Assembly (NCBI GenBank): GCA_014905635.1
Contig: JABVCE010000025.1
Span: 248,001-312,000 of the forward strand
DNA length: 64,000 bases
Source: Scenedesmus sp. PABB004
Lineage: Eukaryota
Direction of reading: 5' to 3'
Each line of letters begins with the position of its first letter. Positions within the stretch are counted from its first letter, which is position 1. The notes beneath the pieces are model-generated. The model ran no database searches, was not told the DNA's origin, and saw only the letters and a program-made list of their open reading frames with translations. A program made the translations under genes and the position numbers. Positions 5,783-43,200 of this stretch are shown here, piece by piece.

Positions 5783-6462
5783 GGCCGGCGCCTCGGGCCT
5801 TGGCGTATTGTGGTGGTGTGGGGCGGGGGTGGTGAGGGGAAAGGTTTGCGGGCGTGACGCCTGCGCGCTGTCGTCTGTCGTCGTCGCTCGTGTGTCGGCG
5901 TCCCCGGCCCGGCGGTCCTGCGGGCCGGGCGTGGTGGTAGCCAGGCGCGCCGGCGCGTGCCCCCCACATGTGCTTCATCCCAGTGAGCGCAGCGACGAGG
6001 AACGGGCGCGGCGCGGCGCCGGGGCGTGGCGCGCTCTCAGGCGGCCACGCGCCGGCGGCGCGCCGTGCCGCGTGGGCGGGGGGAGCAATCAAGGCAGCCC
6101 CCGACGGCACCACCACCCACCACCGTTGCGCATTTCTGTCTCCTCCGCTCGTGTGTTCGCCGCTCACGCCGGCGTTGGGCCCGGGGTTCAGCGAGCGTCA
6201 ACGTAACCACGTGCGGCTCACTCGGTCGGTCGGCCCAGTCCCTCAGTCCCTGCTCGAGACCCGAGCCCCACACCCGCTGCCCGCCCGCCGCGGCGACCAC
6301 ACCGCCTGCCCGCGGCCGGCGCGCACGCGGCCGGCGCGCCGCCGCTGCTGCAGCGCCCGCGATGGACGCGCCCAGCGTGCTGTGCATAGCCTGCGCGCTG
6401 CTGCTGCGGCTGCTGGTGGCGCTGTCGCCGTACTCGGGTGCGCGCGGCCGCGCGGGGTGGGC
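5783..6462. repeat. Block B second copy (native ALG6 promoter and exon 1)
   Basis: Reverse complement of 1044-1721. Confidence 0.9.
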
Positions 6463-8627
6463 CCGGCCGGGCGCCGCGGGCGTCGGCCATCACCGCGTCG
6501 CCGACGCCGCGTGCGCCGCCCTCCGATCGCCGCGCAGGCGCCGGCACGCCGCCCAAGTATGGCGACTACGAGGCGCAGCGGCACTGGATGGAGCTGACGA
6601 CCAACCTGCCAGTCGTGGAGTGGTGCGGCGCCGCTGCTCGCTGCCGCCGCCGCGTCGCCCCGCCCTGCCCTCACCGCCCGTGCCGTCCGACCGGCCGGCA
6701 GGTACCAGGACGGCCCCCACAACGACCCAAAGTACTGGCCGCTCGATTACCCGCCGCTTTCGGGCTATCAGGCGCGGCGAGCGGCGCGCGGCGCTGAGCG
6801 CCAGCACCGGTTGCGCCAGCGCGGGCGCCGCCGCCGAGCGGCTGCCGCCGCCGCCGAGCCGCCCCGGCCTGCGCGCGCCGCAGAGCTACCTGCACGGGCT
6901 GCTGGTGCGCGCGTTCGACCCCGCCGCCGTGGCGCTGGGCACGTCGCGCGGCTACGAGACGCACTTCTCGAAGCAGCTGATGCGCTGGACGGTGCTGCTG
7001 TCGGACGTGCTCAGTGAGGCCCCGCCCGCGGCGCCGCGGCGCGCGGGAGCGCGGCGCCAGCGGCCCGCCCGCGGCGGCGCGCGGGAGCGCCCGGGGCCGC
7101 CACACCGCCGCCCGCCCGCCCGCCCGCAGTCTTCTTCCCCGCGGCCGTGCTGGCGGCGCGCGCGTTTGGCGCGCCCGGCCCGGCGCCGCGCGGCGCACGC
7201 AGCGGCGGCGCCGCCGCCGTGTCGGGGCGACTCTTTGTGCTCGCGGCGGCGCTGCTGCAGCCGGCGGCGGTGCTGATCGACCACGGGCACTTTCAATACA
7301 ACTGCATCAGCCTCGGGCTCACCGCGCTCGCCGCGACCGCGATCGCGGCGCGGCGCGACGTGCTCGGCAGCGTGCTCTTCAGCGCCGCGCTCAACCACAA
7401 GCAGATGGCCCTCTTCTACGCCCCCGCCTTCTTCGCCCACCTGCTCGGGCGCTGCCTGCAGCAGCGCGGCGCGGCGCGCAAGGCGCGCGGCCAGCCGCGG
7501 CGCGGCACGGCGCGGTGGTGTGCCGCGCTGCGCTCCCGCGCGCGCTGAGCGGCACCCCGGGGCGGCGCCGGCGCGCGCGCAGGTGCTGGCGGTCGCCCGG
7601 CTGGGCGCCGCGGTCGTCGCGACGTTTGTGGTGTGCTGGTCGCCCTGGCTGACCTCGCTCGAGGCGGCCGGCCAGGTGCTGCGCGTGGCTCGCTGCCGCC
7701 GCGCCGCCGCGCCGCCGCCGCCGCCCAACGCCCGCGCCGCGGCCGCGCCGCCGCGCGGCCAGGTCGCGCGGCGCATCTTCCCCGTGGGACGGGGGCTGTA
7801 CGAGGACTACCTCAGCAACTGGTGGTGCGTGAGCTCGGTCGCGGTCAAGTGGAAGGGCCTCGTGGCGAGCCAGGCCGCGCTCGCGCCGCTGTGTGCCGCG
7901 CTCACGCTCGCCGCGGCGGCGCCGAGCATGGCGCACCAGCTCGCGCGCCCCTCGCCGCGCGGGCTGCTGCTGGGCATGGCCAACAGCGCACTCGCGTTCT
8001 ACATGTTTGGATACCAGGTGCGCCGCGGCGGGCGCTGGGCGGGCGCTGGGGCCGCGCGCCGCACGCGCGTCGCGCACGCCGCGCTGGCCCGCGCACACCG
8101 CGCTGGCCCGCGCACGCCGTGCTGGCCCGCGCACGCCGTGCTGGCCCGCGCACGCCGCACGCCGCGCCGCGCAGGTGCACGAGAAGTCCATCCTGCTGCC
8201 GCTGCTGCCGGTGACGCTGCTCGCGGCGTCGGAGCCGGACGCGGCGGTGTGGGGCCCGGTCGTGGGCGCGTTCAGCATGTTCCCGCTGCTCTCACGCGAC
8301 GGCCTCGCGCCCGCGTACGCCGCGACGCTCGCCGCGTGGCTCGCGGTCGCGCCCGGGCTCGCGCCGCCGCGCGGCGGCGGCGCCGGCGCAGCGCCCGCGC
8401 GCTGGCGCGGCGCCGCCGCCGCGGTCGCCGTGGCGGGCGCGCTCGCGCTGCACACGGCGTCCGCGCTGCTGCCGCCGCCGGCCGCGCTGCCGTGGCTGTG
8501 GGACCGCGCGCTCGTGAGCTACGGGTTTGTGTTTGTCGCCGCCGGCATGGCCTACCTCAACGCGCGCCAGTGGGCGCTGCCCGCTGAGGAGGCGGGCACG
8601 GCCGGCGGCGGCAAGAAGGGGCTGTGA
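6362..8627 (+). CDS. ALG6: Dolichyl-PP-Man9GlcNAc2 alpha-1,3-glucosyltransferase (multi-exon)
   Basis: Motifs [58 protein letters not shown] and [12 protein letters not shown]-terminal KKGL (KKxx ER retrieval signal). Confidence 0.95.
8083..8158. repeat. Intronic tandem repeat, about 4 x 19 bp (GCTGGCCCGCGCACGCCGT)
   Basis: Read directly in the last ALG6 intron. Confidence 0.8.
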
Positions 8628-8797
8628 CGACGGCGCGCGGCGCTGCGCCCCAAACCGCGCGCGCGCGCAGCTGCGCCTCGCCTGGCGGTGGTCGTGGTCG
8701 CTCGCTTGCGCAGCCCCCGTCCGTCACCCCACGCCCCAGCGCCTCCGTTGCGCGGCCCTGGGCGTCGCCTCTGCCCTGCTCCCGCCAGCGCGCAGTC

Positions 8798-9964
8798 ATG
8801 GCGCACGCCGCCGCGCACGAGTTTGAGATGAACGCCAACGCAGTGGTGAAGGGACAGGTGCTCATCGTGGCCACGTCCTGCAACGCGTTCGGCAACAGCG
8901 GCGTCCCGACCGGGCTGTGGCTCTCCGAGCTCGCCGAGCCGTACTGGGCGCTGCACGACGCCGGCTACGACATCACGATCGCCAGCCCCGCCGGCGGCGC
9001 GGTCCCGGTGCGCGCGCGCGCCGGGCGCAGCGAGCCCTGTGCACGCACTGCGGGGGCGGCGATCTGAATGCGACACCCCCGCGCGACCGGCCTGTCCCCC
9101 GCCGCCACCGCAGATCGACCCCACCAGCCTGGAGGGCGACGCCAAGACGCCCGACGCCGCGCGCATGCTGGCAGACGGTGCGCGGCGCCGCCCCGCGGCC
9201 CCGCTGCGCGCGGCGGCAGCGCGCGGCGCCGGCCCAGCCCTCGCGCCGCCGCCCCTCGCTCCCATTGCCCCCGCCGCGCGCAGACGAGGCGCGGCTGGCG
9301 CTGGAGCGCACGGTCAAGCTGGGAGAGGTGGAGCACGCGACGTTTTACGACGCGATCGTGCTGCCGGGCGGGCACGGCCCGATGTATGACCTCGCCGTCA
9401 GCGAGCAGCTCGGCGACCTGCTGACCCAGGCCGCCGCGGCAGGCAAGCTCATCGCCGCGGTGTGCCACGGGCCGGCCGGCCTGCTGCCCGGCAAGGGCCC
9501 CGACGGCCGGCCGCTGGTCGCGGGGCGGCGCGTCACGGGCTTCACCGACAGCGAGGAGGCGGCCGTGGGCAAGGACAAGGCGCGCCGGGCGGCAGCGCGC
9601 CTCGCGGCTGGGCCCGGCCGGCGGCGGCGGCGCGGGGCGGGCCGCCGCGCCCGGCGGGCCTCGGGCTGAGCCGCCGCCGCCGCCGCCGCGCTGCCCCGCC
9701 GCGCCATGCTGCCGCCAGATCATGCCCTTCTCGCTCGAGGCCCGGCTCCGCGACGCGGGCGCCGACTTTGCGCGCGCCCCGGACTGGGCCGAGTGCGTCG
9801 TGCGCGACGGCAACCTCATCACCGGCCAGAACCCCGGCAGCGCGGTCGGCCTGGCGCGCGAGCTGCTCGCCGCGCTCGGCGAGGCGCGTGCCGGCGGCGC
9901 GGCGGCGGGCGGCGGCGTCACGTACACCGCCGGCGAGCTGGGGCTGGTCGGCAAGGGGCAGTAG
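8798..9964 (+). CDS. DJ-1/PfpI family protein, Hsp31/glyoxalase III-like (4 exons)
   Basis: TGLWLSELAEPY, IASPAGGAVP|IDPTSL, YDAIVLPGGHGPMYDL, IAAVCHGPAGL, VTGFTDSEE, DGNLITGQNPGS. Confidence 0.92.
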
Positions 9965-10152: not shown

Positions 10153-12075
10153 TCAGCAGCAGCCGGCGGCCGGCGCCGGCGCCGGCGGGGCGCGCGCCGC
10201 GAGCTCCTCGATGTCGCGCACGCCACCGCCGCCGCCGCCCGCCTCGCCGCCGCAGCCGGCCTGCTGGTGCTGTATGACCAGCTGCCCGCACGCGCCCGCG
10301 ATGTCCTGCCCCTTCTCCTGCCGCACCGTCACCGCGACGCCGCGCCGCCGCACGGCCGCCTGGAACGCCGCGACCGCGGCCTCGCCCGGCGCGCCGTAGC
10401 TGGGGCCGTCTGGAGAATAGACCGGGTTCCAGGGGCTGCGCCGCGGCGCGGCGCGGCGGGCGCGGGCCGGCCGGGCGCGGCGCGTGAGGCGGGCGCGGCC
10501 GGCGCACGCGGCGCGCGGCGGGCGCGTGGGGCGGTGCGCGGCGCGGCGCGGCGGGCGCGCGCGGGGCGGCGCGCGGCGCGGCGCGGCGGGCGCGGCGGCG
10601 CGGTGCGGCCGCACATGAGGTTGAGCACCACGTCCCGCCCCGCGAGCAGATCGCCGAGCTCCTCCGCGTGCGACGGCGCGTCGTTGACGCCGGCGAGCAT
10701 CACATACTCGACAAACACGCGCTGCCCCGACGCCGCCTGGTACTCCGACACCGCGGCCATGAGGCGCTCCAGCGGGTACGCGCGCGCGCTCGGCACGATG
10801 CTCGCCCGCAGCGCCTGGCTCGGCGCGTGCAACGACAGCGCGAGCGACACGCCCTGCGCCCGCGCGCGGCGTGCGGCGGCGGCGGCGGCGGCCGCGTCGG
10901 CGACGCCAACGACCGGCTCCGCGGCCCCGCGCCGGCGCCGCGGCCCCTCGCCCGCCCCGCACCGCCCGCGGCGGCGGCGGCGCACCGGCAGGTCGGCCGC
11001 CATGGTGCGGATGCGTGGGATGACGCCGACGGTGCTCACGGTGATGTGGCGCCGCGCGACGCCAAAGAGCCGCGGGTCGGCCATCATCCCCACCGCGTGC
11101 CGCACCGCGTCGTAGTTGGCCAGCGGCTCCCCCATGCCCTGCGCGGCGCGGCGCGGCGCGGCGGCGCGGCGGCGGCGTCGGCGCGGCTGGGCCCGCGCCC
11201 TGCAGGCGGGCGGCCGCCGCGCTGGCGCCGCCGCCGCGCTGGCGCCGCCGCCGCGCTGGCGCCGCCGCCGCGCTGGCGCCGCCGCCGCCGCGCTGACGCT
11301 GGCGCGTCACCATGAACACGACGTTCCGAATGGGCGTGACCGCGGCCGCGTGCACCAGCTGCTCGATGATCTCCCCGCAGCAGAGGTTGCCCCGCAGGCC
11401 CATCGTGCCGGTCGCGCAAAACGTGCACCCCATCTGGCACCCGACCTGCGACGACACGCACAGCGTGCTGCGCTGGTTGCCCCAGCCCGCCGCGTCGTCG
11501 CGGCCGGCGTAGCGCTCTGCGGCGGCGCGGCGGGCGCGCGGCGGCAGCGTGGGCGGGGGCCGCGCAGCGGAGCCGCTGGGTGGCGCCGCGTGGCGCCGCA
11601 TGGCCGCACGCAGCCAGGCAGCGCACCGGCTGTGTCGTAGTGCATGACGACCGCCTCCACCTGCTGCCCGTCCTGCAGCTCCAGCAGCAGCTTGGTCGTG
11701 TCCGCGCCGGCGCTGCGCTGCACGCGCAGCACGCGCGAGCTGCAGCGCGTGAAGCGCTCGGCGAGCAGCGTCGCCGCGGCCTTGGGCAGCTCCGGCACCG
11801 CGTCCCACGCCACGTCGGGGTCGCGCAGCAGCGCGCTGCGCGCGGCGGCGGCTGGCGTGACTTTGGGCCGTTGCGGCGGCGGCGGCGGCCGTGGCGGCGG
11901 CGGCGGCCGCGGCGGAGGCGGCCGGTGCGGCGGCAGCAGCCCCGGCGGCGGCAGCGGCCCCGCACCGCCAGAGCGCGAAGACGTGGAGCTCCTTCACTCC
12001 GGCCTCCATGAAGGCCTCTAGTAGAGCTGGCTGGTCCCACACGCTCAGCGGGGAGAGCGTGCGCGACGGCGGCAT
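10153..12075 (-). CDS. RlmN/Cfr-family radical SAM RNA methyltransferase (multi-exon)
   Basis: [38 protein letters not shown] (CxxxCxxC), [47 protein letters not shown]. Confidence 0.93.
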
Positions 12076-12418
12076 CCCGGCGCGAGGTGGATGGCCGCCG
12101 CCGCTGCTGTTAGCTCGTGGCGGCGGCCGCTGTCCGCGGCGCCGGGCGCGGGTCCACGGCCTCGCGAAGAGCGCGCGGACGCGCCTGCGGCCAGGCGGCT
12201 GGCCAGGCGACGGGCGGCGCCGCCAGCCGCCGCGTCGAGCTGAAGGCGGCTGCTCGCTCTGGCGTCGCCTGGCTCGCGGGCTGCGTGCGTGTCCGAGCTC
12301 TGCAGCCCGCGACAAGAGAGCAGGCGGTCACAGCGTGCGCTGCCGCGGCCGGGCGCTGAACCCAGCGCCGCGCCGCTCGTGCCCGCGCCCGCCCCGCTCG
12401 CCCGTCGCGCCTGCGTCC

Positions 12419-13722
12419 TCACAGCAGGTCGCCCTCCGCCTCGTCCTCGCCCCAGCCCACCCAGCCGCCCTCGCCGCCGTCGCCCTCCCCGCCGCCGCCC
12501 TCCCCGCCGCCGGCCTCGCCGCCGTGGTCGTCGCCGTGGTCATCGTCCAGCGCGTCCAGCAGCAGCCCGAGGTCGAGGTCCAGCCCGCCAAACACGGCGT
12601 CGCTCAGCGCGCAGCGCATCTGCAGGTCGCCAAACAGCTCCTCGCACTCGGCCAGCTCCAGCGCCGCGTCGGCGGCGGCGGCGGCGGCGGCGCTGCCGCC
12701 GCCCACGGCGTCGTTCACGCCGCCGGCCGCGCGCTCGGCGGCCGCGAGCTCGGCGCCGCGGCGCGCGCAGAGCCAGTCGCCGGTCTGCAGGAAGCTGGCC
12801 AGGTACGCGGCGTCCTCGCCATCAAACAGGGACGCGGCGCCGTCAAAGAGCGCGCGCGCGCGCTCCCACGCGCGCGGGAGCGGCGCCGCGCCGCCCTCGG
12901 CGGCGGCGGCCAGCGCGTACGCCTGCTGCGCGTCCGCGTCCGCCGCGGCCTGCGCGAGCTCGCCGCCGGGCGCGGGCTCCGTCGCGGCGCCGTCCAGCGG
13001 CGCCGCCGCGGCACCTGGGTCCTCCTGCTGCGCCGCCGCCTCCGCGCCGCCGCCGCTGCCGGCCAGCGCGGCCTCGGCTCCCTCCCAGCCGTCGGCGCCG
13101 TCGCCCCACGCGGCGTCGGCCCAGCCGTTGGCGTCGGCGTGCGCCGCGGGCTCCTCGGCGGGCTCCTCGGCGGGCTCGCCCTGCGGCAGCGGCTCGCCGT
13201 GCTCCCGCATGATGATGTTCCCCAGCGCGGTGGCCACGATGTGCTTGGCCGCCGCCGCCGCGACCTTGGCGGTGCCGGGCTGCGAGCCGCTGCTGGACAG
13301 CCGCGGCAGCCCCTGCGCTGGCTCCTGCCACTGCTCCGGCTGCTGCTGCTCCGGCTGCGCGGCGGGCGCGGCCCACTCCTGGACGGCAGCGGCGCCCTCC
13401 GGCTGCACCGACGCGTCCAAGGCTCCGGCGCCGCCCTCGCACTCCCACGCGTCAGCGACGACCGCCTGGCCGTCGGCCGCCACCGCGCCGCCCTCCGAGC
13501 CCCAGCCGCCCGCGAGCTGCTGCTGCTGCTCCGCGGCCGCTGGCGGCTCGCTGGCCGCCGCCTGCTGCTCGTAGGGCTGGCTGTAGCCGGCCTGCTCGTA
13601 GCCCGCCTGGTCGTAGCCGGCGGCCTGCTCGTAGCCCGCCTGCTGCTGCTGCTGCTGCTGCTGCCAGTCGCCGTATTGAGCGTACTGGTCGCCGTAGTAT
13701 TGAGCGTACTGCTCATACGGCG

Positions 13723-13796
<74 letters not shown>

Positions 13797-15576
13797 CCGC
13801 CCGACTCCGCGCCGCCAGCCGCGCCCTCCGGCACGAGCCTGCTCGTGGGCGTCGGCTCGCTGCCGGGGCTGGCGCCGGCCACGGCAAACGCGGGGCCCGC
13901 GGTCGCGGCGCGCGCGGGCGTGGACGGCGAGGGCGCCGCCGCCGCGTGCGCGTGCGCGGCGTGCGCGGCGCCGCCGGGCTGCGCCCAGTCGGTGTAGCGG
14001 CTCGCCTGCGACAGCCCCGAGTCGCCGGGGCTGGGCGGCGGCGCGCCGCCGCCGGCCGCGAACGCGGCGGCCGCGGTGCCGTGGCTGGGAAAGCCAGGCG
14101 CCGCGGCGGGCGCGCTGATGCTCGGGCGCGCGCCCGCCGGCAGCTTGCTGCGGTGCTCCATCTGGCGGTACCAGAAGGCTGCGGGGCGGCAGCGGCAGAC
14201 GACGACGCGGGCGCGTGAGCAGCGCGTCTGCCCAGCGCTGCCCCCCCCCTCCCGGGCGCGCGCCCCCGCCCCTGCTCGGCGGCCGGGCGGGCGCTCACCG
14301 TCCTTCTTGGCGCCGCGGCCGTCCCGCGCCGCCGCCGCGCGCTCGGCCTCACGCGCCGCCTCGCGCTCGCGCTCGAGCGCCTCCCAGGGCAGCTCCTTGT
14401 TCAGCTTGCCGGGGTTGCGCCACTGCGTCGCGCGCCAGTTGATCTCCGATACGCTCTGCTGCAGGAAGGCATCGTACGGGTGCGTGCGCCCCCCCTCGGC
14501 CGCGCTGCCGCCGCCGCCCGGGCTCGCGCCGCTGAACCGCCGGTCGCCGGCGCCGGCCTTGGCGGCATCGACGCCGGCGGCGTGCAGCGCCGCGGCGCCG
14601 GCCGCGTGGCTCTGCGGCGGGCTGGTGGGCGGCGCAAAGCCGTTCAGCAGGTGCTGCTGCTGCCCCTGCTGCGAATGCTCCTGCTCCTGCAGCCCGCCCG
14701 CGGCCGTGCCCGGCGCGCTGGGCCGCCACGGCACCGCGCCGCCGCCCGACGCGGTGGCGCCGCCGCCCGGCAGGAAGACGCCGGGCTTGCCGCCGCCAAA
14801 CGTGGCGGCCGGCGGGCTGGGGATGGGGAAGCCGGCGGGCGCCCTGGCGCTGCCGCTGTTGGTGCTCAGCTCGCTCACGCCCGTGTTGGTGCGCGCGAGC
14901 GGGCTGACCGCGCGTGCGTAGGGGCTGCTCGGCCGCACCGCGGTCAGCAGCGTCGCGTCGCCCGCGAGCGCAGACGCCGGCAGCGTGATGCCCGCGCTGT
15001 CCTGGGCCTGCGGCGAGCCGCCCGGGCCGCCGCTGCCGGCGCTGCCGTTGGCGGACGGCCGCGGCGGCGGCAGCAGCGCGCCGATGCCGCCGCCGGCCGC
15101 GCCGCCGCCGGCCTTGGTGGGGCTGTGCAGCGACGTGCTGCGCGCGGGCGCCGCGCCGCCGCCCCACGCGCCGCTCGGCGCGCCGAAGCCGGCCGGGTGC
15201 GGCGCGCTGCCGGGCGCGCTCTGGTGCTGCCGCGCGGCGGCCGCCGTGGGCGACAGGAAGCGCGCGCTGCCGGGGTCGTCGCTGCCGCCCGGCGCGGTGG
15301 TCGCGATGCCCGGCAGCTCTGGGTGCACGGGGTCCAGCAGCACCGGCGCCGGCTGCTGCGCCGCCTGCTGCTGACCCGGCGCCGCGCCGTGCACGCCGTC
15401 AGGCTGCTGCTGCTGCTGCGGCTGCTGTTCGTAGTAGGCCCCGTACGCGGCGTAATCGTAGCCCGCGTAGTTGCCGTTGGCGTCGGGGGCATACTGGTAC
15501 TGCTGCTGCTGCCAGTCGCCGGCCTCACCGCCCGGCTGCTGCTGCTGCTGCCAGTCGCCGCCGGCCTCGCCGCCCG

Positions 15577-15608
<32 letters not shown>

Positions 15609-17362
15609 TCGCCGCCCGGCTGCTGCGTGTAGCCGCCGCTGCCGTCCGGCGCCTGCTCGCTCCAGCCCCCGTACTGTCCGTAGCCGGTGGCAGCGAGCGC
15701 GGCGCCCTCGGCGTCCGCCCCAGCCGCTGCTGGCGGCCCGCCCTCGGCGCCGCCCCAAGCCGACTCGTCCCCGCCGGCGCCGTACCAGCCCGACTCGGCG
15801 CCAGCTGCTCCCGGCGCCGGCGCCAGCGGGTCGGCCTGCGGCGCCGCGAGCGGGTCGGCCTGCGGCGCCGCGAGCGGGTCCGCTGCGGCTGCAGCGTCCG
15901 CGGCGGGCGCCGCCAGCGGGTCCTGCTGCTGCGGCGGCTGCCAGCTGCTGGCGTCCTGCGCGGCGGCGTGGGCCGCGTGCACGCCATCGCCGTTGGCGAG
16001 CGGGCCCGCCGCAGGCTCCTGCTGCGGCTGCTCCTGCAGCTGCTGCTTCGGCGCCGCCTCGCCCCACCGCGGCGGCGACGTCACCTCCTCGCCCTCCGCC
16101 GCCGCCGCGGCGCCCCGCGACGGCTGCCCCGAGCTGCCGCTGCGCGGCAGCGCCCCCGGCGGCTGCCACATGGCAAAGCTGAGGTTGCCGCTGCCGCTCG
16201 CCAGCGCGGGCACGCGCCCGCCGGAGCTGCTCTCGCGCTCCTCCGCGCCGGGCGCCGCCGCGTCGCCCGCGTCCCCGCCGCCGCCGGGCGCCGCGGGCAG
16301 GAAGGGCGCCAGCTGGCCGCTGCCGCCGCTCGCGGGGCCGGGCATGAAGGCGTCGAGGGACAGCCCAGACTGCGACGACTGCGACATGCCGCCGCCGCCG
16401 GCGGCCTCGCTCGCCGCCTCGCTCGCGGCGGGCGTGGGCACGAAGAACCCGCCCCCGGCGGCAGCGGCGCCCCGCCGCCGCCGCCGCCGCCGGGCTTGGG
16501 CAGCCCCGGCGCGCGGGGCAGGCCCGGCACGAGCGCGCCGCCGCCGCCCGGCAGCAGGCCCTTGCCGCTCGGCGGGCCGCTGCCGCCGCTCGAGCCGCCG
16601 GGCGGCGCCACGCCGCCGACGGGCGTCGCGATGTAGCGGCCTTTGAGGCTGCGGTCCCTGTGCCGGCGACACGACGCGCGGCGCGGCGGCGGTTGGCGCG
16701 GCCGGCGGCGGCGCGGGCGGTGGGTGCGGGCAGTGGGCGCGGGTCGGACGCGGGCGCGCGCCGCCCGGCGCCGCCGGGCAGCCGCGCACCGCTGGAACGT
16801 GATGGCCGCTGGCGGCGGCGGCCCGCCGCCGGCCGCGGCCGCGGCGGCCGCCTCCGCCGCCGCCGCGGTCGCGACGAGCGACGTCACGCTGGACGCCGCC
16901 GACAGGCTGCCCACGCTCGGCGGCGGCGCGCTCAGCTTGGCCCGCTCCGCGCGCGCCTCTTCCTCCTTGCCGCGCTCGACCCACATCTTGAGCTGTGCGG
17001 CGCGGTGCGCGGTGCGGGGTTGCGGCGTGAGCCGCGGGCGCCGGCCGGGCAGGCAAGGCGGGCGCCGTGGGCGCCGGCGCCGCCCGGCGCCGACCAACAG
17101 CAGCAGCGCCGCCCGCCCGCTGCGCGGCGGCGCCGCGCCTCGTCGTTGTAGTACATCTGGTTGGCCAGCCCCAGGTTGGCCTTCTTGTACGCCTTGGCCT
17201 CCCCATCCTCGCCCTCGGCCTGGGCGCGCCCGGCGGCAGCACGCGAGGGGCGTCGCCTCCCATCAACCGCTGCACCCGCCCGGCGCGCCGCGGCGCCCCG
17301 CGGCGCCTCGTGCGCCGCGCCCGACGGGGCCGCACCTTCTTGCGGCTGAGCAGGCGCAGCAT
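12419..17362 (-). CDS. Large low-complexity Q/A/G/P-rich protein with an N-terminal Sec16-C-terminus-like motif
   Basis: ATG at 17362 (MLRLLSRKK); next exons AEGEDGEAKAYKKANLGLANQMYYNDE|LKMWVERGKEEE; long coding exons with host-like codon usage; stop at 12419. Exon structure partly inferred. Confidence 0.7.
13724..13792 (-). repeat. (CAG)23 coding microsatellite (polyQ)
   Basis: Pure CTG run on the + strand. Confidence 0.9.
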
Positions 17363-17694
17363 GGTGCCTCCCAGGCGCCGGGCCCGCGCGAGCTCCGCGG
17401 TTAGGCGCACCGCGCGGCGAGCGGGCGTCGCATGGTCACGGACGAGCCGCAGCGCGGTCGTGTCTGGAGCGCGGGGGACCGGAGAGGCGCGTGCCCACGA
17501 GCAGGCAGCTGAGACCGACCGACCTGCGCCCTGCGCGCCCGCTCCGCCTGGTTCCGCCCGTGCGCGCTCCACGCGCGTTCACAGCGACCCCGCCACCAAG
17601 CGGCCAGCTGCGCTCGTCGCGCCGCGCTCTCGCTGCTGCTGCCCCGGCCGCCCGGCCAGCCCGGCGCGCGCCGCAGCGGCGCGGGGCGCCTCCG

Positions 17695-20600
17695 ATGCGC
17701 GCCGGCCTGCGCGCCGGCCTCCGCGGCCGGGCAGGGCCCCGCCGGCTGGCCGCGCCGGCAGCAGCGGCAGCCAGCTGCGCGGGCCCGCAGCTGCGCGCTG
17801 CGCCCCGCCCGGCGCGGCGCCCCGCCCCGGCCCTCGGGAGCGCGGCCGGAGCTGCCCGGGCGTCGCCGGCGCGGCGCCGCATGGCGGCGGCGCCGCCGCG
17901 CGCGGCGGCGGGCGGCGCCGGTGCGCCGCCACCGGCGCCGGCGCCCGCCGAGGTCTTCATCCCCATCGCCGAGCTGCGCGAGCTGTGCGCCAAGTCGCTG
18001 GGCACGCTGGGCTACGCGGAGGAGGAGGTGGCGGTGCTGCTCGAGGTGCGCGCGCGCCGGCGCGGCGCGGCGCGAGCAGCCGGCGCGCGCGGTCCCGCGG
18101 CAGGCGAGCGCCCCGCCGCCGTGTTGGCGCAGGTGCTGCTTTACGCGCAGCTGCGCGGCAACAACCAGGGCGTGATCAAGATCACCACGGGCGGCCTGAA
18201 CCGCGCGCCGGGCGCGACGCCGGTGCGCGTGGAGCGCGAGACGGCGCTGAGCGCGCTGCTGCACGGCGGCGGGCAGGCGGGCATGCTCGTGCTGCACCGC
18301 GCGATGGAGCTCGCGGTCGCCAAGGCGCGCGACACGGGCGTGGGCATCGTGGGCACGCACCACACGGCCACGTCGACCGGCGCGCTCGGCTACTATGCAC
18401 AGGCGGTCGCGGCGCAGGGCCTCGTCGCGCTCGTGCTCGCGCAGAGCCCCGAGTTTGTCGCCCCGCACGGCGCGCGGCAGGCGGTGTTTGGCACCAACCC
18501 CATCGCCGTCGGCGTGCCCGCCGCGGGCGGCCCGGTCGTCATGGACATGGCCACCGCCGCGTACGCGTGGTTCGGCCTGCTCGAGGCCAAGACCGCGGGG
18601 CGCCCCATCCCCGGCGACGTCGCGCTCGACGCCGACGGCAAGCCCACGACCGACCCCAACGCGGTGCTCTCGGGCGGCGCCATCCGCGTGTTTGACAGGC
18701 GAGCGACGCCGCGGCGGCCGTACGCGGCGGCGGCGCGGGCGGCGGCAGCAGGAGCCGCGCGGCAGCAGCACGGGCCGGGGACGCTGCCGCTGCCGCTCAC
18801 CGCGCCGCCGCCGCGCCGCCGCCGCCGGTCAGGAGCCACAAGGGCAGCAACCTGGCGCTGATGGTGGAGCTGCTGGCGGGGCCGCTCGTGGGCGCGGCGG
18901 TCGCGGACAAGCTGGCGGAGCGCAACTGGGGCAACCTCATCCTGGTGCTCGACCCGGAGCTGCTCGGCGACCAGGCCACCATCGCGGCGCGCACGCAGGC
19001 GCGCCGGCCGGGCGCGCGGCGGCCGGGGCCGCACGCGCCGGCGGGCCGGCTGGGAGAGGGGGCGCGGGCGCGGCGCGGCGGCCCGCCGCCGCCGAGCGCC
19101 GCGCGCGCCGCCGCGCGCCGCAGGCGGTGCTGGACCGGGTGAAGGGCGCGGCGCGGCTGCCGGACGTGGCCGAGATCCTGCTGCCGAGCGAGCGCGGCAA
19201 CCGCGTCGCCGCGCAGCGCCTCGCGAGCGGGCTGACGCCGATCGAGGCCAACCTCTACTCGGCGCTGAAGGTCATGGCCTCCAACGCAGCAGCGGCGGCG
19301 CCGGGCAGCGGCGCGAGCGCCAGCGCGGGCGCCAGCGCGAGCGCCGGCGCCGCCGCCAGCAACGGCGCCGGCGGCGGCGGCGGCGGCATGAAGCTGCCGA
19401 CGCTGCTGCTGCACCCCGCGCCGGGGTCGGTCGTCGACCCGTTTGACGCGAGCGGCGCGCCGCTGTACCAGACGGCGACGTTCGGGCAGCCGAGCGCGAC
19501 GCAGGGGGGGCCCTACGACTACACGCGCAGCGGCAACCCCACGCGCACGATGCTGGAGGAGCAGTGGGCCGCGCTCGAGGGCGGTGTGCGGGGGCTGGCG
19601 TTCACGTCGGGCATGGCCGCGCTGTCGGCGGCGGTGAAGCTCGTCACCACGGGCGGGCACATCGTCGCCGGCGACGACATCTACGGCGGCACCAGCCGCC
19701 TGCTCGCGCAGGCGCGGCCTGCGGCGGCGCGACCTGCGGCGGCGGCCCGCGCGGCGCGCGCCGGGCGCGTGCGCGCGTTGCGGCCGCCCGCGCCCCGCGG
19801 CCGACGCGCCCCGCGACCGCCGCGCGCCGCGCCCCCTCCGCCGCCGCCGCCGCAGGTCGCGCCCAACGCAGGCGTGAGCGTGAGCAACGTCGACATGACC
19901 GACCTCACGTGCGCCGCAGGCAGCGGCGGCAGCAGCAGCAGCAGCAGCAGCGGGGGTTTAGGTTCAGGGCTCTGCGCGCCCGCAGCGCGGACGGCGGCGC
20001 GCGCAGCGCGGGCGGCGGCGCGGTGGTGCTCACCGCGTGCGCCGTCGCCGCCGCCGCCGCGGCGCCGCAGCGCGGTCAAGGCGGCGATCGTGCCGGGCAA
20101 GACGCAGCTGGTCATGGTCGAGTCGCCGACCAACCCGCGCATGCAGGCACGGCGCGGCGCGCCCGCGCCGCCGCGCGCTGCTCGCGCCGCGGCCCGCCCG
20201 CCCGCGCCCTCGACCGCGCCTCACGCCTACCCCCTCCCCCCCCCCCCCACACACACTCACTCACACCCACACCCACACACACCCGCGGCCCGCCCAGGTC
20301 TGCGACATCCGGGCGATCGCGGCCGCCGCGCACGCCGCGGGCGCGCTCGTGTGCGTGGACAACAGCTTCCTCACGCCCCTCTACCAGCGCCCGCTGGAGC
20401 TGGGCGCCGACATCAGCATGACGAGCGGCACCAAGTACGTCGGCGGGCACGGCGACACCACGCTCGGCCTGCTCGCGGTCGCCGACGCGGAGCTCGGGCG
20501 CCGCCTCTATTTCCTGCAGGCGCGCCCGGAGGCGGGGGGAGGAGGGGGAGGGGGGCGGGCGGAGAGGGCGGGAGGCGGAGAGGGCGGGAGGCGGAGAGGG

Positions 20601-21612
20601 CAGGAGGGGAGAGGACGGGCGAGGGCGGGTGACGGGGCGCGGCACGGGGGCGCGCGCCGCCGTGACGCACGCCGCCGCGACGCCCCGCCCCGCGCGCAGA
20701 ACGCGGAGGGCGCGGGCCTCGCGCCAATGGACTGCTGGCTGGCGCTGCGCGGCCTCAAGACGGTGCGGCACGGGGCGCGCTGGCCGGCCGCGCTCGCTCC
20801 CGCGCGCGCCCCGCATGCCGACGCCTACCCTGCCGCCGCCGCCGCGGCTGCCGCGGCCGCCGGCTCCCAGATGGCGCTGCGCATGGAGCGCAGCGTCGCC
20901 AACGCGGCGGCGCTGGCGCGCTTCCTGGAGGGCCACCCGCTCGTGACGCGGCTCAACTACGCCGGCCTGCCCAGCCACCCGGGCGCGGACGTGCACGCGG
21001 CGCAGGCGACCAGCGGCGGCGCGGTGCTGAGCTTCGAGACGGGTGCGCGCCGCGCGCCGCGCGCCGCGCGCCGTGCGCCGCGCCCGCCCGCCGCCCGCCG
21101 CGCGCGGACGCCCGCGCGCCGCGCTCACACGACCACGCGCCGCGCGCCGCGCCGCGCCGCCGCCAGGCGACCTCCAGGCGTCGCGCATCGTCGTCGAGGC
21201 GACGCGGCTGTTCAAGGTGACCGTGAGCTTTGGCAACGTCATCTCCCTCATCAGCCTGCCCTGCTTTATGAGCCACGCCAGCATCCCCGCCGCCGTGCGC
21301 GCCGCGCGCGGCCTGCCGGACGACCTCGTGCGCATCAGCGCGGGCATCGAGGACGCGGGCGACCTGCTCGCCGACCTCGGGGCCGCGATGGACGCCGCGC
21401 TCGCCGACAAGGCGCGGCGCGAGGCCGCGGCCGGCGGCGCGCGCGCGGGCGACGCCGGCGCCGGCGCCGGTGCTGGCAATAACAACGGCGGCGGCGGCAA
21501 CGGCGGCGGCGGCGGCGGCGACGCGGCGCGCGTCGCGGCGCTCGAGGCGCGCATACAGCAGCTGGAGGCGCAGCTCGCGGGGCTGAACGGCCAGGCCGTG
21601 CGGCCGCTGTGA
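17695..21612 (+). CDS. Plastid-targeted fusion: Ldh_2 (type II malate/L-lactate/sulfolactate dehydrogenase) family domain plus cystathionine beta-lyase
   Basis: R/A-rich transit peptide. Ldh_2 motifs: YAQLRGNNQG, GALGYY, FGTNPIAVGVP, MDMAT, HKGSNLALMVELLAG, LLPSERG. In the same exon (19124-19711) an A/G/S linker is followed by CBL motifs PLYQTATF and YDYTRSGNPTR; later exons give ESPTNP, SGTKYVGGHGD (PLP lysine), TVSFGNVISLISLPCFMSHASIP and LVRISAGIED. Confidence 0.9.
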
Positions 21613-22034: not shown

Positions 22035-23676
22035 ATGGGGCTGGCCAAGGCCATTCGCAGGGCTCTCACGAACAGCGGCCTGCTGGCGGAGGCGCGAAAG
22101 TTCGACCAGGATGACGAGCTCATGGTGGTGCGTCCAGGGCGGGCGCGGCGCCGGCCAGGGCGGGCCTGGCGGGGCCCCGTGGCCCGCGCTCAGAACGCGT
22201 GCCCGCCCCCGCGGCCCTGGCGCTGCAGGCGGTGCTGCACCCGGACGCCCACGAAGAGGGCGGCCTGGCCTGCAACGACAAGCAGCTGCTGGCAGAGATG
22301 CGCGAGTAAGCAGTGGTCGATGCTCGGCGGCAGCAGCGGCAGCAGCGGCAGCAGCGGCAGCGGCGGCAGCGGCGGCAGCGGCAGCGCGCGCGGCCGCCGC
22401 CGGCGCCCGCGGCGCGCGGCAGCGGCTGCCGGCAGGCCGACCGCTCGCGGACGACCACCGCGCGGGCGGCCGGCGCGCCGGCCAACCCCTGCCGCGCTGC
22501 TGCCGCGGCGCGCGCGCCGCAGGTGCATCATGACCTGGATCAAGTCCATGGGCCGCCAGCTGCTGCAGGGCAACCTCAACCTCGTGAACTCGAGCTTCCC
22601 GGTGCTCATGTTTGAGCCGCGCAGCTACCTGCAGAAGCTCGCCGACATCTGGGCCTACCCGCAGCTCATCAACGCCGCCGCCGCCGCGCCCGACCCGCTC
22701 GAGCGCATGAAGCTGCTCGTCGCCTGGGTCGTCGCGGGTGCGCCGCGCCCCGCGCCGCGCCGCCCGCGCGCCACCCGCGGCGTACCCGCCCGCGCCGCGC
22801 CACCACCCCCGCCGCGCCGCCCGCGCGCGCCGCGCCACCGCCCGGGCGCCACCACCCGCGCCACCACCGCGCAGGGCTGCACCACAGCGTTGAGAACTGG
22901 CGGAAGCCCTTCAACCCCATCGTCGGCGAGACCTGGCAGGCGACGATGCCGGGCGGGGTGGCCCTGTTCATGGAGCAGGTGAGCCACCACCCGCCGGTGA
23001 GCGCGTACCAGCTGCAGGGCCCCGCGTGGAGCCTCGCCGGCTGGAGCCAGCCCGCGGTCGTGCCGGTGGTCAAGTTCTACGGCATCAAGACCGTGGCCAA
23101 GGGCGCGCGGCGCATCACGTTTGCCGACGGCAGCGTGGTCGAGATGACGATGCCCCACTTTGCCATCAAGGGTGCACGGCGCGGCGGGGCGGGGCGCGGG
23201 GAGGGCGAGGGCCGGCGCGGCTGGGCGGCGGCTGCGGCGCCGGCGGCGGCGGCGCCGGCGGCAGGCGCCGGCCCGGCGAGCGCGCCGCGCCGCGCCGCGC
23301 CGCGCCCTTGACCCTGCGCGCGCCGCGTGCGCCGCGCAGGCGTGGTGTACGCGGCGAAGCCCCACGCCGAGGTGCTGGGCGTCGCGCGGCTGCTGGACGA
23401 GGCCAACCGCCTGGAGGCGGTGGTCAACTTTGGGCCCGTGCCGGGCACGCGGCAGCGCATGCTGGCGCGCGCCGACGCGGTGTGCGGCGAGATTTACCAG
23501 CTCCCGCGCGCGGCGCACCTCCAGGACGCCGGCGGCGGCGGCGGCGGCGGCGCGCTGCAGCGCACGGGGACGTGCGCGACGGCGCTCAGCGACCTCGGGC
23601 GCGACGCGGAGCAGCTGAACCTCGGCTCGCTCGACGGCGGCAGCTGCAGCAGCAGCGCCGAGTTCCACTCGGACGA

Positions 23677-23707
<31 letters not shown>

Positions 23708-23857
23708 AGCGCGCGGCGGCGGCGGCGACGGCGGCGGCGGCGGCGGCGACGGCGGCGGCGGCGAGGGGCCGGACGCCGACGACGAGGCCATCTTCAATGA
23801 CTTCAACACCGCGCACTTTGGCGGCGACGGCGCTGCCGCGCCGGCCGCCGCGGCGCC

Positions 23858-23902
<45 letters not shown>

Positions 23903-24386
23903 GCAGCCGGCCGCGGCGCCGGCCGGGGGCGGCGGCGGCGGCGGCGGCGGGCGGCACGCGTACCACCGCAGCCGGAGCTCCGTGTCGATGATGGCCGAGC
24001 CCGCCAGCCGGCGGCCAGGCGGCGCGGTCGTGCCGGGGCTGGCGGTCGCGCGCATCGAGGGCTGCTGGCTGTCCCACCTCAACGTGGACAACGCGCGGTG
24101 CGGCGCCGCACCGCGCCGCGCCGCGCTGGCGCGCCGCGCCGCGCCCCGCCGCCGAGCGCCGCCGCCGCCGCGCCGCCGCAGGTACTGGACGCTCGCCGAC
24201 GCGCAGCCGCAGCGCTGGCAGTCGGCGGAGGCGCCGCTGCCGTCGGACCTGCGCTTCCGGGAGGACCTCGCGGCGCTCGCGGGCGGCGACCTCGCGGCGG
24301 CGCAGCACTGGAAGGAGGTGCTGGAGACGCGGCAGCGCGCCGACCGCAAGCTGCGCGAGGTGGCGGGCGTGTTTGAGCACCACTGA
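22035..24386 (+). CDS. Oxysterol-binding protein (ORD only), with an apparent +1 frameshift near 23700
   Basis: SFPVLMFEPRSYLQK, KPFNPIVGETW, EQVSHHPPVSAY (ORP signature), LPSDLRFREDL, LETRQRADRKLR. Confidence 0.9.
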
Positions 24387-40252: not shown

Positions 40253-43200
40253 TCACAGCTTGGCGCCGGCCACCCACGACGCGCGCAGCGCCGCGGCGGC
40301 GAAGCCGATGAGGTCCGCCGTCTCGGCGATGATCTTGGTGGTCGGCCGCCCCGCGCCGTGGCCCGACTTGGTCTCGCAGCGCAGGAGCAGCGGGTTCCGC
40401 TGCGCCGCGTCGGCGCCGCGCGCGGCCACGAGCGCGTGCTGCAGCTCGGCGACAAACTTGAGGCTGTGCAGCGGCACGACGCGGTCGTCGTGGTCGCCCG
40501 TCGCGAGGATGACCGCTGGGTACTGCCCCGCGCCCCCCGCGGGCGGCGACACGTTGTGCAGCGGCGAATACCGGCGCAGGACCTCAAACGCGGCACGCTC
40601 GTCGGGCGAGCCGTAGTCGGTGCACCAGGCGGCGCCGATGGTGAACTGCGCGGCGCGCGCGGCGGAGGCCGCGAGGGGGCGCGGGCGGGGGCGAGGGAGG
40701 TCGGGGCGGGACGCCGCGCGCGCTGCGTCCCCCGCCGCGGGGAACTCCGCCCCGGCCGCCGCCGCGTGCAGCCGTGGGTGCGTGCGCGTGCCTTGTGGAA
40801 GCGGAACATGTCCAGCACGCCGACCTGGGGGGCAGGGGCGCGGGGGGGGGGGGGGGGGGGTCCGGCGGCAGCCGGCCGGGCAGCGCGTGAGCCGAGGCGG
40901 CGCGCCGCGCCCGCGCCGCGCCCGCACCGCGCCGAGCGCCCCCGCTGCGCCCGCGCGCCGCGCCGCGGGCGCGCCTGCGCGATGCCGCAGGCATAGAGAT
41001 CGGGCCGCTGGTTCACGCACGCCGCGACGAGCAGCCCGCCGTTGCTGCCGCCCTGGATGGCGAGCTTGTCGGCGCGGCAGTACCCCGCCGCCTGCAGGTA
41101 TTCCGCGCACGCCTGGCGGCGGGGCGGGGGCAGCAGGCGCGCGGCAGGCGCACGTCGGCCCCGGGCCGGGCCGGGGCGGCAGCAGGCGGGGGCGCGGCGC
41201 GCCGCCACCGGCGGGTCCGGGGCGCGCCCCAGCTCGCCCCAGCGCCGCGCGGGACCTTGCCTGGAAGTCGTCAAAGACGTTCTGCTTGTTCGCCTTGCTC
41301 CCCGCGTCGCGCCACTCCACGCCGTACTCGCCGCCGCCGCGGAGGTTGGCCTGCGCGCGGCCCCGGCGGCGGCGGCGGCGGCGGCTCGCGCGCGGCGCGC
41401 GCCGACGCGGGCGCTCGGCCGCGCTCGGCGCGCTCGGCCGCGCGTGGGCCCTTCGCGCGCCTGCGCAAACACGCCGCCGTAGCCGGCCATCCAGGCGAGG
41501 CGGCTGGGGCTGAACCCCGGCTCGAGGCTGATGTTGAACCCGCCTGGCGCCGCGGCGCGGGGGCGCGTGGGCGCGCGGGCGACGTGCGGGCGGGCGGCGC
41601 GGGGCGTGGCGGCGCGCTGCCGGGCGCGGGGCGGGGCGCAGAGGAGGGGGGGGGGGCGTGTGCGGGCGCACCGTAGCCGTAGAGGAGCGTGGGGTTTGAG
41701 CCGTCGAGCACGAGGCCCCGGCGGTGCGTGATGAACATGGGCACCTGGCCAGGCGGGGCAGGCGGGGCAGGCGGGGCAGGCAGGGAGGCGAGGCAGGCAG
41801 GGAGGCGGGGCAGGCGGGGAGGCAGGGAGGGAAGGATGTGAGCGCGGCGCCGCCGCGCGGGCGAGCGCTCGCGCGCCGGCGGCGCGTAGCCATGGCGCGG
41901 CGGGCGCGCCGTGCCTGCGTGCCGTCCTTGCTCGTCACAAACACCTGGCGGCGGCAGCGGCGCGCGGCGGGCGGCGGGCGGGCGCGCGCACGCCTCTCGG
42001 CCGCGGCGCGGGCGGCTGCCGCCCGTCGCCCCCACAGCCCCCATGGCTAAACCCTGAGGCACTTGCCTAAACCCCAGCCGCACCTGCTTGACCTCGTACT
42101 CCTCGGGCGCGTGCGGCACCTTGAGCGCCGTCGCGCGGAAGAGCGCCGGCGGCGCGTCACCGGCGGCGAGGTCGACGCGGAACGTCGCGCCCGGCTGGAC
42201 AAAGCCTGCGCGGGCGTGGTGCGCGGCGCGGGCACGCACGGGGCGCGTCGGCGTGGGGCGCGGCGGCGAGGTTCTCCCGCGGCGGCGGGCCCCCGGCGTT
42301 GCCCCCCCTGCCGCTCACTCGTGAAGGAGAAGAAGAACTCGCTGCTCTTGCGGTTGCCGCTGAAGCCGCTGACGCTGCCGATGCCGGGCAGCTCAAACTC
42401 CTGGCGGCGCCGGCGGCGGCGGCGCGCAGAGGGCGACGTTTGCGCGCAGTGAGCGGCGGCGGCGCGCCGCCGCGCGCAGCGCTGGCGGCGCTCGCGGCGC
42501 GGCGCACGGCAGCGCGCACCCGGACGCGCTCGCCCGTGCTGAGCCTGTGCAGCGCGAGCGCCGACTTGACGTCGCGCAGGTGGCGCAGCACGAGCTCGTC
42601 GCCCGCGAGCGCGACCGCGCTCTGCAGCAGGTCGCGCGGGTGCTGCGGGACGACCTCGCGCCACGCCGACGGGCTCGGCCCCGGCGCGGAGAGGTCAACG
42701 CGCACGACCCTGCGCCGGGGCCGGCGGCGGCGGGGGCTCGTGGGGCTGAGCGCGCTGCGGGCCGAGGACTCCGCCCGGCACCCAGCGCCCGGCGCGGGCC
42801 GCGGCTGCGTGCGCGGGCCGCCGCGCGCGCGCCGCGCGGGTCAGCCGCGCCTATATCGCGGCGCGTCGAGGTTTGTCTTGAAGGTGAACGCCTCGCCCTC
42901 GTTGGCCACGTAGTCCCAGCTCGCGTCAAAGCTGTCCACCAGCTTCACCAGCGGCAGCGGCGCGCTGCCTGCGGCGGCGCGCGGCGGCGCGCAGCGGCGC
43001 ACGGGTGCGGCGGCGCGCGGCGGCGTGCTGCCGTGCCGGGCGCCGCGGGCCGCGCGCCGCCGCGCGCGCCCCACGGCCGCGCGCCCCAGCCCCAGCTGCC
43101 CGGCCGCCCCTCCCCGCGCCCTCTGCCCCTCTGCCCCCCCCCCCCGGACCCTCCCGCACCCCCCGCACCCTTGAAGCGGTCAAAGCTCGAAAAGTCGAGC

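Follow-up and report, generated by a model that had tools for sequence, protein, structure and literature searches.

In land plants, cystathionine beta-lyase (CBL) converts cystathionine into homocysteine, pyruvate and ammonia by way of aminoacrylate and iminopropionate, and depictions of the methionine pathway in green algae usually take over the land-plant scheme. For the Ldh_2 family of oxidoreductases, the AllD structure paper (PMC3527362) describes two histidines as family-invariant, one or the other being catalytic in AllD, DpkA and YiaK. It counts His44, His116, Thr156, Pro158, Asp174, Lys224 and Gly306 as conserved cofactor-site residues and reports the AllD mutants H116A and R48A as inactive. 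A 2018 preprint (10.1101/495713) proposed 'AqE', an LDH2/MDH2-family enzyme of aquatic organisms with no function assigned and closest to sulfolactate-dehydrogenase-like enzymes. AqE, whose name rests on a channel-catfish Ldh_2 gene, is said there to occur in algae, bacteria, fungi and non-tetrapod animals but to be absent from, or lost in, land plants, which according to the same preprint have no Ldh_2 gene at all. Here we analysed 64,000 nucleotides (nt) of the Scenedesmus sp. PABB004 genome (assembly GCA_014905635.1, contig JABVCE010000025.1, positions 248,001 to 312,000 of the forward strand; hereafter the window, numbered from its first letter), in which a gene at 17695-21612 on the plus strand joins an Ldh_2 domain to CBL. 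The gene encodes a single polypeptide carrying both domains, with an intact CBL half and an Ldh_2 half that is conserved but non-canonical.

One gene encodes both domains

The gene has ten exons, whose boundaries we set by reading the window DNA against homologues. Its spliced coding sequence of 2703 nt has a lone terminal stop and specifies 900 amino acids (aa), in the order Arg/Ala-rich presequence, Ldh_2, 36-aa Ala/Gly/Ser linker, CBL and helical tail. The first-pass annotation had assigned a single exon, 19124-19711, to the last part of Ldh_2, the linker and the first part of CBL, and we recovered the same exon boundaries with both peptides in one frame. This frame, which runs from stop to stop over 18251-20632, reads ...LLPSERGNRVAAQRLASGLTPIEANLYSALKVMA at the end of Ldh_2, continues through the linker and enters CBL at MKLPTLLLHP...YDYTRSGNPTR. 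Because the window is ~79% G+C and 28.8% of 20000 random 588-nt frames were free of stops, the open frame alone is weak evidence, and the case for the fusion rests on same-frame homology on both sides of the linker together with collinearity with full-length proteins. In Pfam searches the Cys/Met-metabolism pyridoxal 5'-phosphate (PLP) enzyme family Cys_Met_Meta_PP matched the junction exon at residues 106-195, as well as three of the exons after it. The spliced product was 69.1% identical to a Raphidocelis protein (P0005; 590/854 columns), 76.3% to a transcript-derived one (P0001; 570/747 columns), 66.7% to that of Chlamydomonas reinhardtii (P0386) and 58.9% to that of Mesostigma (P0035). Overall it was collinear with six fusions at 59-76% identity, with long gaps solely at the presequence, the linker and the tail. 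A tblastn search of the whole window with two fusions found a single locus and no second copy. The features of the gene are as follows.

17695-18045, plus strand: exon 1 (start ATG at 17695, second in-frame ATG at 17881, GT donor), coding for the presequence and for ~32 aa at the start of the Ldh_2 domain
17695-17949, plus strand: presumed organellar presequence, 85 aa (R15, A33, P15, no D, E or K)
18046-18132, plus strand: intron 1, 87 nt, in frame
18133-18698, plus strand: exon 2, Ldh_2 core (PF02615, E value 1.8e-49, 169.1 bits against a gathering score of 38.8; GC donor)
18166-18180, plus strand: Q-G-V-I-K codons of LRGNNQGVIK, placed by phmmer alignments to 2x06, 1v9n and 4h8a
18166-18168, plus strand: Gln codon at the place of His44 (AllD numbering)
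18178-18180, plus strand: Lys codon at the place of Arg48 (AllD numbering)
18373-18375, plus strand: Ser codon in TATSTGALGYY at the place of His116 (AllD numbering), placed by the alignments
18833-18998, plus strand: exon 3, Ldh_2 (SHKGSNLALMVELLAG...; PF02615 profile positions 224-284, E value 2e-9; GC donor)
19124-19711, plus strand: exon 4, the junction exon with the Ldh_2 end, the linker and the CBL start (AG acceptor, CAG/GC donor)
19280-19387, plus strand: inter-domain linker, 36 aa (A15, G11, S7, N2, P1, zero basic residues)
19856-19908, plus strand: exon 5, CBL, collinear with P0005 and P0001 (GT donor)
20071-20146, plus strand: exon 6, CBL (...VMVESPTNPRMQ), placed by collinearity with the fusions (GC donor)
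20298-20519, plus strand: exon 7, CBL with the PLP site (PF01053 profile positions 153-226, E value 5e-25; GC donor)
20433-20435, plus strand: PLP-binding Lys codon in the motif MTSGTKYVGGHGD (K in 37 of 37 fusions)
20700-20762, plus strand: exon 8, CBL (TIGR01329 positions 225-245; GT donor)
20871-21042, plus strand: exon 9, CBL, from Pfam, TIGR01329 and collinearity (GT donor)
21167-21612, plus strand: exon 10, with the CBL end, a Gly/Ala/Asn-rich spacer and the helical tail (stop TGA at 21610-21612)
21529-21585, plus strand: coiled-coil-like tail RVAALEARIQQLEAQLAGL, whose RIQQLE core is common to P0001, P0003, P0004 and P0006

The N-terminus looks like an organellar presequence because its 85 residues are so rich in Arg, Ala and Pro and hold no Asp, Glu or Lys, and we presume from this composition that the product is targeted to an organelle. 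The linker has no basic residues, in agreement with the earlier statement that the reductase half alone has a transit peptide. Five of the nine introns are GC-AG (18699-18832, 18999-19123, 19712-19855, 20147-20297 and 20520-20699), with splice boundaries fixed to the base by homology, and all five GC donors follow an exon-final CAG (CAG/gcg.. or CAG/gca..). The four GT donors read gtgcg, and the exons before them end in GAG, CAC, ACG and CGG. So high a share of GC-AG introns is out of the ordinary and perhaps a peculiarity of this genome with its extreme G+C content. Intron 1 contains no stop, and its retention would add 29 residues just before the LRGNNQG motif, residues that all homologues lack.

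The fusion is widespread in green algae

We searched with the junction exon against longer proteins, scoring 8000 candidates, of which 1579 matched at E <= 0.001. PF02615 and PF01053 occurred together in 79 of the best 120 matches. These fusions came from Chlorophyceae, Trebouxiophyceae, Ulva, Tetraselmis, prasinophytes and Mesostigma; the sources include Raphidocelis, Gonium, Volvox africanus, Astrephomene, Haematococcus, Chlamydomonas incerta, C. euryale, [Myrmecia] bisecta, three Trebouxia, Coccomyxa elongata, Cymbomonas and Pseudoscourfieldia. With a streptophyte alga (Mesostigma) at one end and Chlorophyceae at the other, the fusion is retained across the deepest splits of the green lineage. 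Annotation artefacts are made unlikely by the transcriptome-assembly proteins (P0001, P0007, P0018, P0062 and P0073) and the many unspliced ~847-aa metagenome open reading frames (ORFs) among the fusions, and the first-pass annotation was right that the Scenedesmus gene did not arise from merging two gene models. The cluster of C. incerta also holds C. schloesseri and C. reinhardtii CHLRE_16g669550v5 (721 aa). This locus, Cre16.g669550, appears as METC, now METC1, in the Chlamydomonas v6 genome preprint (10.1101/2022.06.16.496473). Chlamydomonas METC1 is the same fusion, and we regard the gene model, its architecture and its orthology with METC1 as close to certain. In most green algae, Chlamydomonas included, the CBL step would fall to a protein twice the plant size.

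The other 41 of the best 120 lacked PF02615 in the gene models as annotated, some of which may be incomplete; their sources include Ostreobium, Pedinophyceae YPF-701, Nannochloris, Bryopsis, Botryococcus, Coccomyxa viridis, Sanguina and a Scenedesmus. The module had been called possibly undescribed at first pass. As an architecture it is already common in sequence databases, where the fusions are annotated merely as 'cystathionine beta-lyase' or 'hypothetical protein', and the window gene is one more orthologue of a design that is public for dozens of algae, a model species among them. The part of the claim that stands concerns the literature: full-text searches, covering sources outside subscription journals and bioRxiv supplements, found no published description of a green-algal CBL fused to Ldh_2.

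The CBL half is of the plant type

Cys_Met_Meta_PP (PF01053) matched exons 4, 7, 9 and 10 with E values from 2e-25 to 2e-15, covering profile positions 14-109, 153-226, 248-304 and 309-380 of 381, and exons 5, 6 and 8 complete the domain by collinearity with P0005 and P0001. All four orthologues tested passed the TIGR01329 equivalog cut-off of 487.5 bits (504.6-523.2 bits). Scored piecewise against this model, the window exons gave 120.2, 77.1, 29.3, 49.8 and 99.0 bits and covered positions 11-104, 149-224, 225-245, 246-303 and 306-381, with TIGR01329 as the top family for three of the five pieces. The PLP motif had been described as atypical, a reading that we do not share: none of the residues that 37 fusions have in common there (M, S, T, K, G and D) is missing, and its SGTKY.GGHGD spelling is common to the nearest relatives. 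The lysine of the S-x-T-K-[FY] motif is the PLP lysine of the family. Judged by its sequence, the CBL half is an orthodox and complete plant-type enzyme, and by analogy with established plant CBL it would perform the CBL step of the methionine pathway.

We also modelled the Raphidocelis orthologue P0005 with AlphaFold from a 37-sequence alignment (mean predicted local distance difference test score, pLDDT, 71.9; predicted template-modelling score, pTM, 0.48). The best solved match of the model was Arabidopsis CBL (1ibj_A; 60% identity over 379 columns, E value 4e-39). Residues 1-77 and the region equivalent to the linker had pLDDT < 50, and the model gives no confident inter-domain packing because of this linker score and the pTM. 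The short coiled-coil-like tail noted at first pass is real and recurs in relatives, and in the P0005 model it forms one helix (residues 841-880). We considered whether the tail is tied to the fusion and rejected the idea: a rough regular-expression count put a tail of the LL.RI..LE type in 35 of 50 fusions and, likewise, in 11 of 56 'CBL only' matches, some of which are incomplete models, such as P0001.

The Ldh_2 half lacks the catalytic histidines of its family

The N-domain is a full-length Ldh_2 domain, as that of an orthologue covers positions 6-330 of the 339-position NF040650 model (L-sulfolactate dehydrogenase). Its best solved relatives are ComC (2x06), the Pyrococcus horikoshii protein 1v9n and AllD (E values 3e-38 to 1e-33), and matches in the Protein Data Bank extend across the Ldh_2 family (3e-38 to 1e-18). 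In the alignments the canonical S-H-G-x-x-R becomes N-Q-G-V-I-K in the algal proteins, followed by a gap of ~7 residues, so that Gln replaces His44 and Lys replaces the substrate-binding Arg48, and the canonical H-[SFY]-G becomes S-T-G, which puts Ser in place of His116. Among 37 fusions, Gln and Lys occupied the first two positions in all 37, and Ser occupied the third in 36, with Thr in the remaining one. The cofactor site was largely retained in the same 37 (Thr156 in 37, Pro158 in 37, Asp174 in 37, Lys224 in 36 and Gly306 in 34). The window gene has FGTNP, MDMAT and SHKG but reads LPSERG, and thus keeps four of these five residues, with Ser at Gly306. The resemblance to ComC, AllD and DpkA on which the first-pass annotation relied therefore holds for the Ldh_2 family and for most cofactor residues, and fails at both histidines and the substrate arginine. 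Lacking these three residues, the N-domain is not a canonical Ldh_2 reductase. Neither is it a decaying dead domain, since it is too strongly conserved: mean pairwise identity among the 37 fusions was 0.61 for the N-domain and 0.70 for CBL, whereas linker and presequence stood at 0.17 and 0.23.

The same residues define a large clade beyond the green algae. A search with the orthologue's N-domain among proteins of similar length brought up stand-alone members of ~328 aa, which match the full extent of the algal domain at 50-57% identity. Their sources are Patescibacteria, Aenigmarchaeota, Verrucomicrobia, Vitreimonas, Ectocarpus, Chrysoparadoxa, Chromera and MMETSP transcripts, and 15 of 15 aligned sequences had Gln, Lys and Ser at the three positions. 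An exhaustive search with exon 2 returned 7039 representative clusters at E <= 0.001, 139 of them at E <= 1e-30. Among the 146 best clusters the three signature positions read Q-K-(S/G/A/T/P) in 98 and Q-Q-(G/S) in 5, while His stood at the first position in 6 and at the third in 1; most of the remaining clusters are fragments gapped at these positions. A scan of one genome per prokaryotic species confirmed 183 relatives, of which 80 were kept, from candidate phyla radiation (CPR) groups, Syntrophaceae, Smithella, Syntrophorhabdaceae, Geobacteraceae, Syntrophomonadaceae, Methanomassiliicoccales and others. No animal names appeared among the matches of the N-domain relative searches. All 12 longer relatives tested consisted of Ldh_2 alone, and CBL was the only fusion partner seen.

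In a maximum-likelihood tree of 43 hand-chosen rows, with fusions trimmed to the N-domain and support given as ultrafast bootstrap/SH-aLRT, the His-less clade separated from His-bearing outgroups with 97/90. Within it, a group of eukaryotes plus Verrucomicrobia received 96/91 and a green-lineage group moderate support of 87/82. A stand-alone group adjoins a group of fusions within the green clade; it comprises P0126, P0122, P0123, P0128, P0131 and P0139, His-less Ldh_2 proteins that are 370-412 aa long and extended at the N-terminus, some of them from MMETSP transcripts. Such proteins arose either from a duplicate that lost its CBL half or from a gene split in one lineage.

We found no characterised member of the His-less clade. 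The Veillonella malate-lactate transhydrogenase was considered as one and rejected, as by eye it has canonical His/Arg/His motifs (PMC13034625). There was no solved structure of the clade among the matches in the Protein Data Bank, the ESM Atlas gave nothing beyond 'Ldh family oxidoreductase' clusters and no hint of a function, and the literature searches described above found no report of the missing catalytic histidines or of the clade's function.

For genomic context we chose 35 of the 80 prokaryotic loci for full flanks and analysed 32, with 128 neighbour ORFs. Pyrimidine/purine nucleoside phosphorylase (Ppnp) was the commonest neighbour, in 5 of the 32 loci, all with deltaproteobacterial or Syntrophaceae-type labels. 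In loci L008, L009, L012, L049 and L050 (~5990-6370) Ppnp lies directly after Ldh_2 on the same strand, and the pairing is lineage-restricted. Other neighbours were Ser_hydrolase (3), Lactamase_B (3), EamA (2), NUDIX (2) and Glyoxalase (1), together with proteins of amino-, imino- or oxo-acid metabolism, namely Asp/Glu racemase (2), PhzF (2), a RidA-family protein (1), the FAD amino-acid-oxidase-like DAO (1) and 2-Hacid_dh (1). These neighbours hint, thinly, at the handling of amino, imino or oxo acids or at housekeeping.

What the fused Ldh_2 domain may do

We propose that the N-half is an active enzyme working beside the lyase. It would still bind NAD(P)H, as the retention of most cofactor-contact residues suggests, and would use the non-canonical residues Gln, Lys and Ser instead of His, Arg and His. 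Its long-kept tether to CBL suggests as substrate the three-carbon product of the lyase, in its 2-oxo or 2-imino form. The simplest reaction would be reduction of pyruvate or of 2-iminopropionate, and an iminium substrate would require no histidine general acid. Disposal of the imine, pyruvate or a ketimine, as suggested at first pass, may be its role. Coupling is favoured by the retention of the fusion from Mesostigma to Chlorophyceae, by CBL as the sole fusion partner seen and by the few prokaryotic neighbours connected with amino, imino or oxo acids. On the strength of its conservation pattern the N-domain is probably a working enzyme; that it is metabolically coupled to the lyase we suggest only tentatively, because of the evidence that counts against it.

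Several observations weigh on that side. Catalysis by the N-domain is not assured, because both catalytic histidines are absent and the AllD mutants R48A and H116A are inactive. No NCBIfam equivalog cut-off was reached by the orthologue N-domain among the sulfolactate, ureidoglycolate, 3-dehydro-L-gulonate and malate/lactate dehydrogenase models scored: the best, L-sulfolactate dehydrogenase, gave 196 against 500 bits, and the others gave 159 against 356, 149 against 496, 143 against 336 and 100 against 316 bits. None of the 128 neighbour ORFs in the 32 prokaryotic loci was a Cys/Met PLP enzyme (Cys_Met_Meta_PP) and no neighbour family was consistent across the loci; the prokaryotic neighbours do not tie the clade to methionine synthesis. 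The partners also occur apart. Land-plant CBL works alone (1ibj has 380 residues), and stand-alone CBL is annotated in Ostreobium, Pedinophyceae, Nannochloris, Botryococcus and Coccomyxa viridis. Stramenopiles, Chromera and a foraminifer have members of the His-less clade as stand-alone proteins, and the stand-alone group of P0126 and its relatives falls inside the green group with 97/94 support.

A more specific version of the proposal has, in our judgement, only a slim chance of being right: the His-less clade would be an NAD(P)H-dependent 2-imino-acid reductase that, in the fusion, converts CBL-released 2-aminoacrylate/2-iminopropionate into alanine. If so, nitrogen would be saved and plastid PLP enzymes protected in a reductive counterpart of RidA, and the CBL fusion would serve as a Rosetta-stone clue to a widespread orphan enzyme of CPR bacteria, DPANN archaea, syntrophs, many protists and possibly the animal 'AqE'.

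The rival that survives best, although we consider it somewhat unlikely, is that the N-domain, an active housekeeping or damage-control oxidoreductase of the His-less clade, acts on a substrate that has nothing to do with the lyase reaction. The fusion to CBL would date from an early green alga and would have lasted because both halves gain the same plastid targeting and expression, while no metabolites pass between them. This rival would account for a clade that is widespread and mostly stand-alone (~328 aa, 50-57% identity), in Geobacter, Methanomassiliicoccales and Syntrophaceae among others, as well as for the stand-alone copies nested in the green clade and for prokaryotic neighbours that are varied (Ppnp, NUDIX, Ser_hydrolase, Lactamase_B, glyoxalase) and never Cys/Met PLP enzymes. 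A long, unconserved linker that is modelled as disordered, with no confident domain packing at a pTM of 0.48, fits it too. It is harder to reconcile with the retention of the fusion across the deepest green-lineage splits and with the lack of any other fusion partner among the 12 longer relatives tested. Fusions retained over long times usually join functionally linked proteins.

Less probable still, and in our view unlikely, is a pseudoenzyme: an N-domain with no redox catalysis that serves as a nucleotide-binding or structural module tuning the activity or assembly of CBL, for example as a sensor of the plastid NAD(P)H/NAD(P)+ ratio or as a bridge between CBL tetramers, formed by Ldh_2-type dimers and the C-terminal helix. 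In its favour, all or nearly all members have exchanged His44, Arg48 and His116 for Gln, Lys and Ser, and H116A and R48A abolish AllD activity (PMC3527362); the retention of most cofactor-contact residues agrees with it, and the conserved helical tail suggests higher-order assembly. However, Gln, Lys and Ser are equally conserved in stand-alone proteins of very small genomes (CPR and DPANN), in which one would hardly expect a regulator lacking its partner, and Q-K-(S/G/A/T), shared by 98 of the 146 nearest representative clusters, resembles the signature of an enzyme clade with its own chemistry.

Two separate products, with a start site or cleavage in the linker releasing CBL so that the fusion is only apparent, are very improbable: the CBL half does open with a Met (19388), and read-through of a spacer is not rare when 28.8% of random 588-nt frames are open, but there is no in-frame stop, the 108 nt of the linker are too short for a terminator, a promoter and untranslated regions, the Ldh_2 reading frame has no other ending, the linker has no presequence character (zero basic residues), and both domains are spanned by transcript ORFs (P0001 from TSA; P0007, P0018, P0062 and P0073 from MMETSP) and by unspliced ~847-aa ORFs of metagenome contigs (P0014-P0017).

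Coupling of an active N-domain to the lyase thus stays our preferred, tentative reading. The fusion is the only contextual clue that we found to the function of a large and strongly conserved His-less Ldh_2 clade, and that function is directly testable in Chlamydomonas, an organism with mutants and transformation.

Surrounding genes

Across the 64-kb window, G+C ranges from 69 to 83% in 2-kb windows and is mostly ~79%. Long open frames on either strand are uninformative here because of this composition and the high share of open random frames; a 1719-codon frame at 12419-17578 on the minus strand, for example, overlaps the upstream region of the METC-type gene. At 10183-16102 on the minus strand we observed a coding-like third-position G+C bias and a translation rich in Gln, Ala and Gly, with no Pfam match in the five pieces tested; perhaps this stretch is the gene of a low-complexity protein, arranged head-to-head with the METC-type gene. 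Neighbouring genes, called by Pfam on exon-like pieces, lie at 6830-9510, 22479-24383, 40292-44421, 53486-54514, 55089-55382 and 58448-60983. Their families are an ALG6/ALG8 glycosyltransferase, DJ-1/PfpI, an oxysterol-binding protein, a class II aldolase and a pyridine nucleotide-disulphide oxidoreductase on the plus strand, and a prolyl oligopeptidase and CDC50 (one 343-codon exon) on the minus strand. No sulfur- or methionine-metabolism gene was among these Pfam-identified neighbours.

Comparison with known systems

The characterised Ldh_2 enzymes ComC (2X06), AllD (4H8A/4FJU), DpkA (2CWF/2CWH), the P. horikoshii malate dehydrogenase (1V9N) and Vpar_1595 belong to the same full-length Pfam family as the algal domain and share with it the cofactor-site motifs GTNP, D-M-A-T, HKG and PGE. 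Those compared residue by residue differ at the active site: ComC, 1V9N and AllD align their S-H-G...R and H-[SFY]-G with N-Q-G..K and S-T-G of the algal domain. Vpar_1595, the Veillonella malate-lactate transhydrogenase, likewise has canonical His/Arg/His by eye (PMC13034625, Supplementary Table 3). The stand-alone His-less Ldh_2 proteins are closer; they repeat the LRGNNQG[IV][IV]K and T-S-T-G-A motifs of the algal domain and have no CBL attached. AqE (10.1101/495713) resembles the N-domain as a member of the Ldh_2 family; the preprint gives no motifs and mentions neither a CBL fusion nor missing histidines. For the other half, Arabidopsis CBL (1IBJ) is the best structural match of the P0005 model, and the orthologues pass the eukaryote-type TIGR01329 model; its solved chain of 380 residues has neither an Ldh_2 domain nor a helical tail.

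The METC1-type fusions match the window gene throughout, in domain order, Gln/Lys/Ser signature, unconserved linker, PLP lysine and, usually, the helical tail. The Scenedesmus copy differs from the others in a Ser at the Gly306 position, as found in 3 of 37 fusions, in the much higher G+C content of its gene and in the GC-AG type of five of its nine introns. Nothing essential separates it from other METC1-type fusions.

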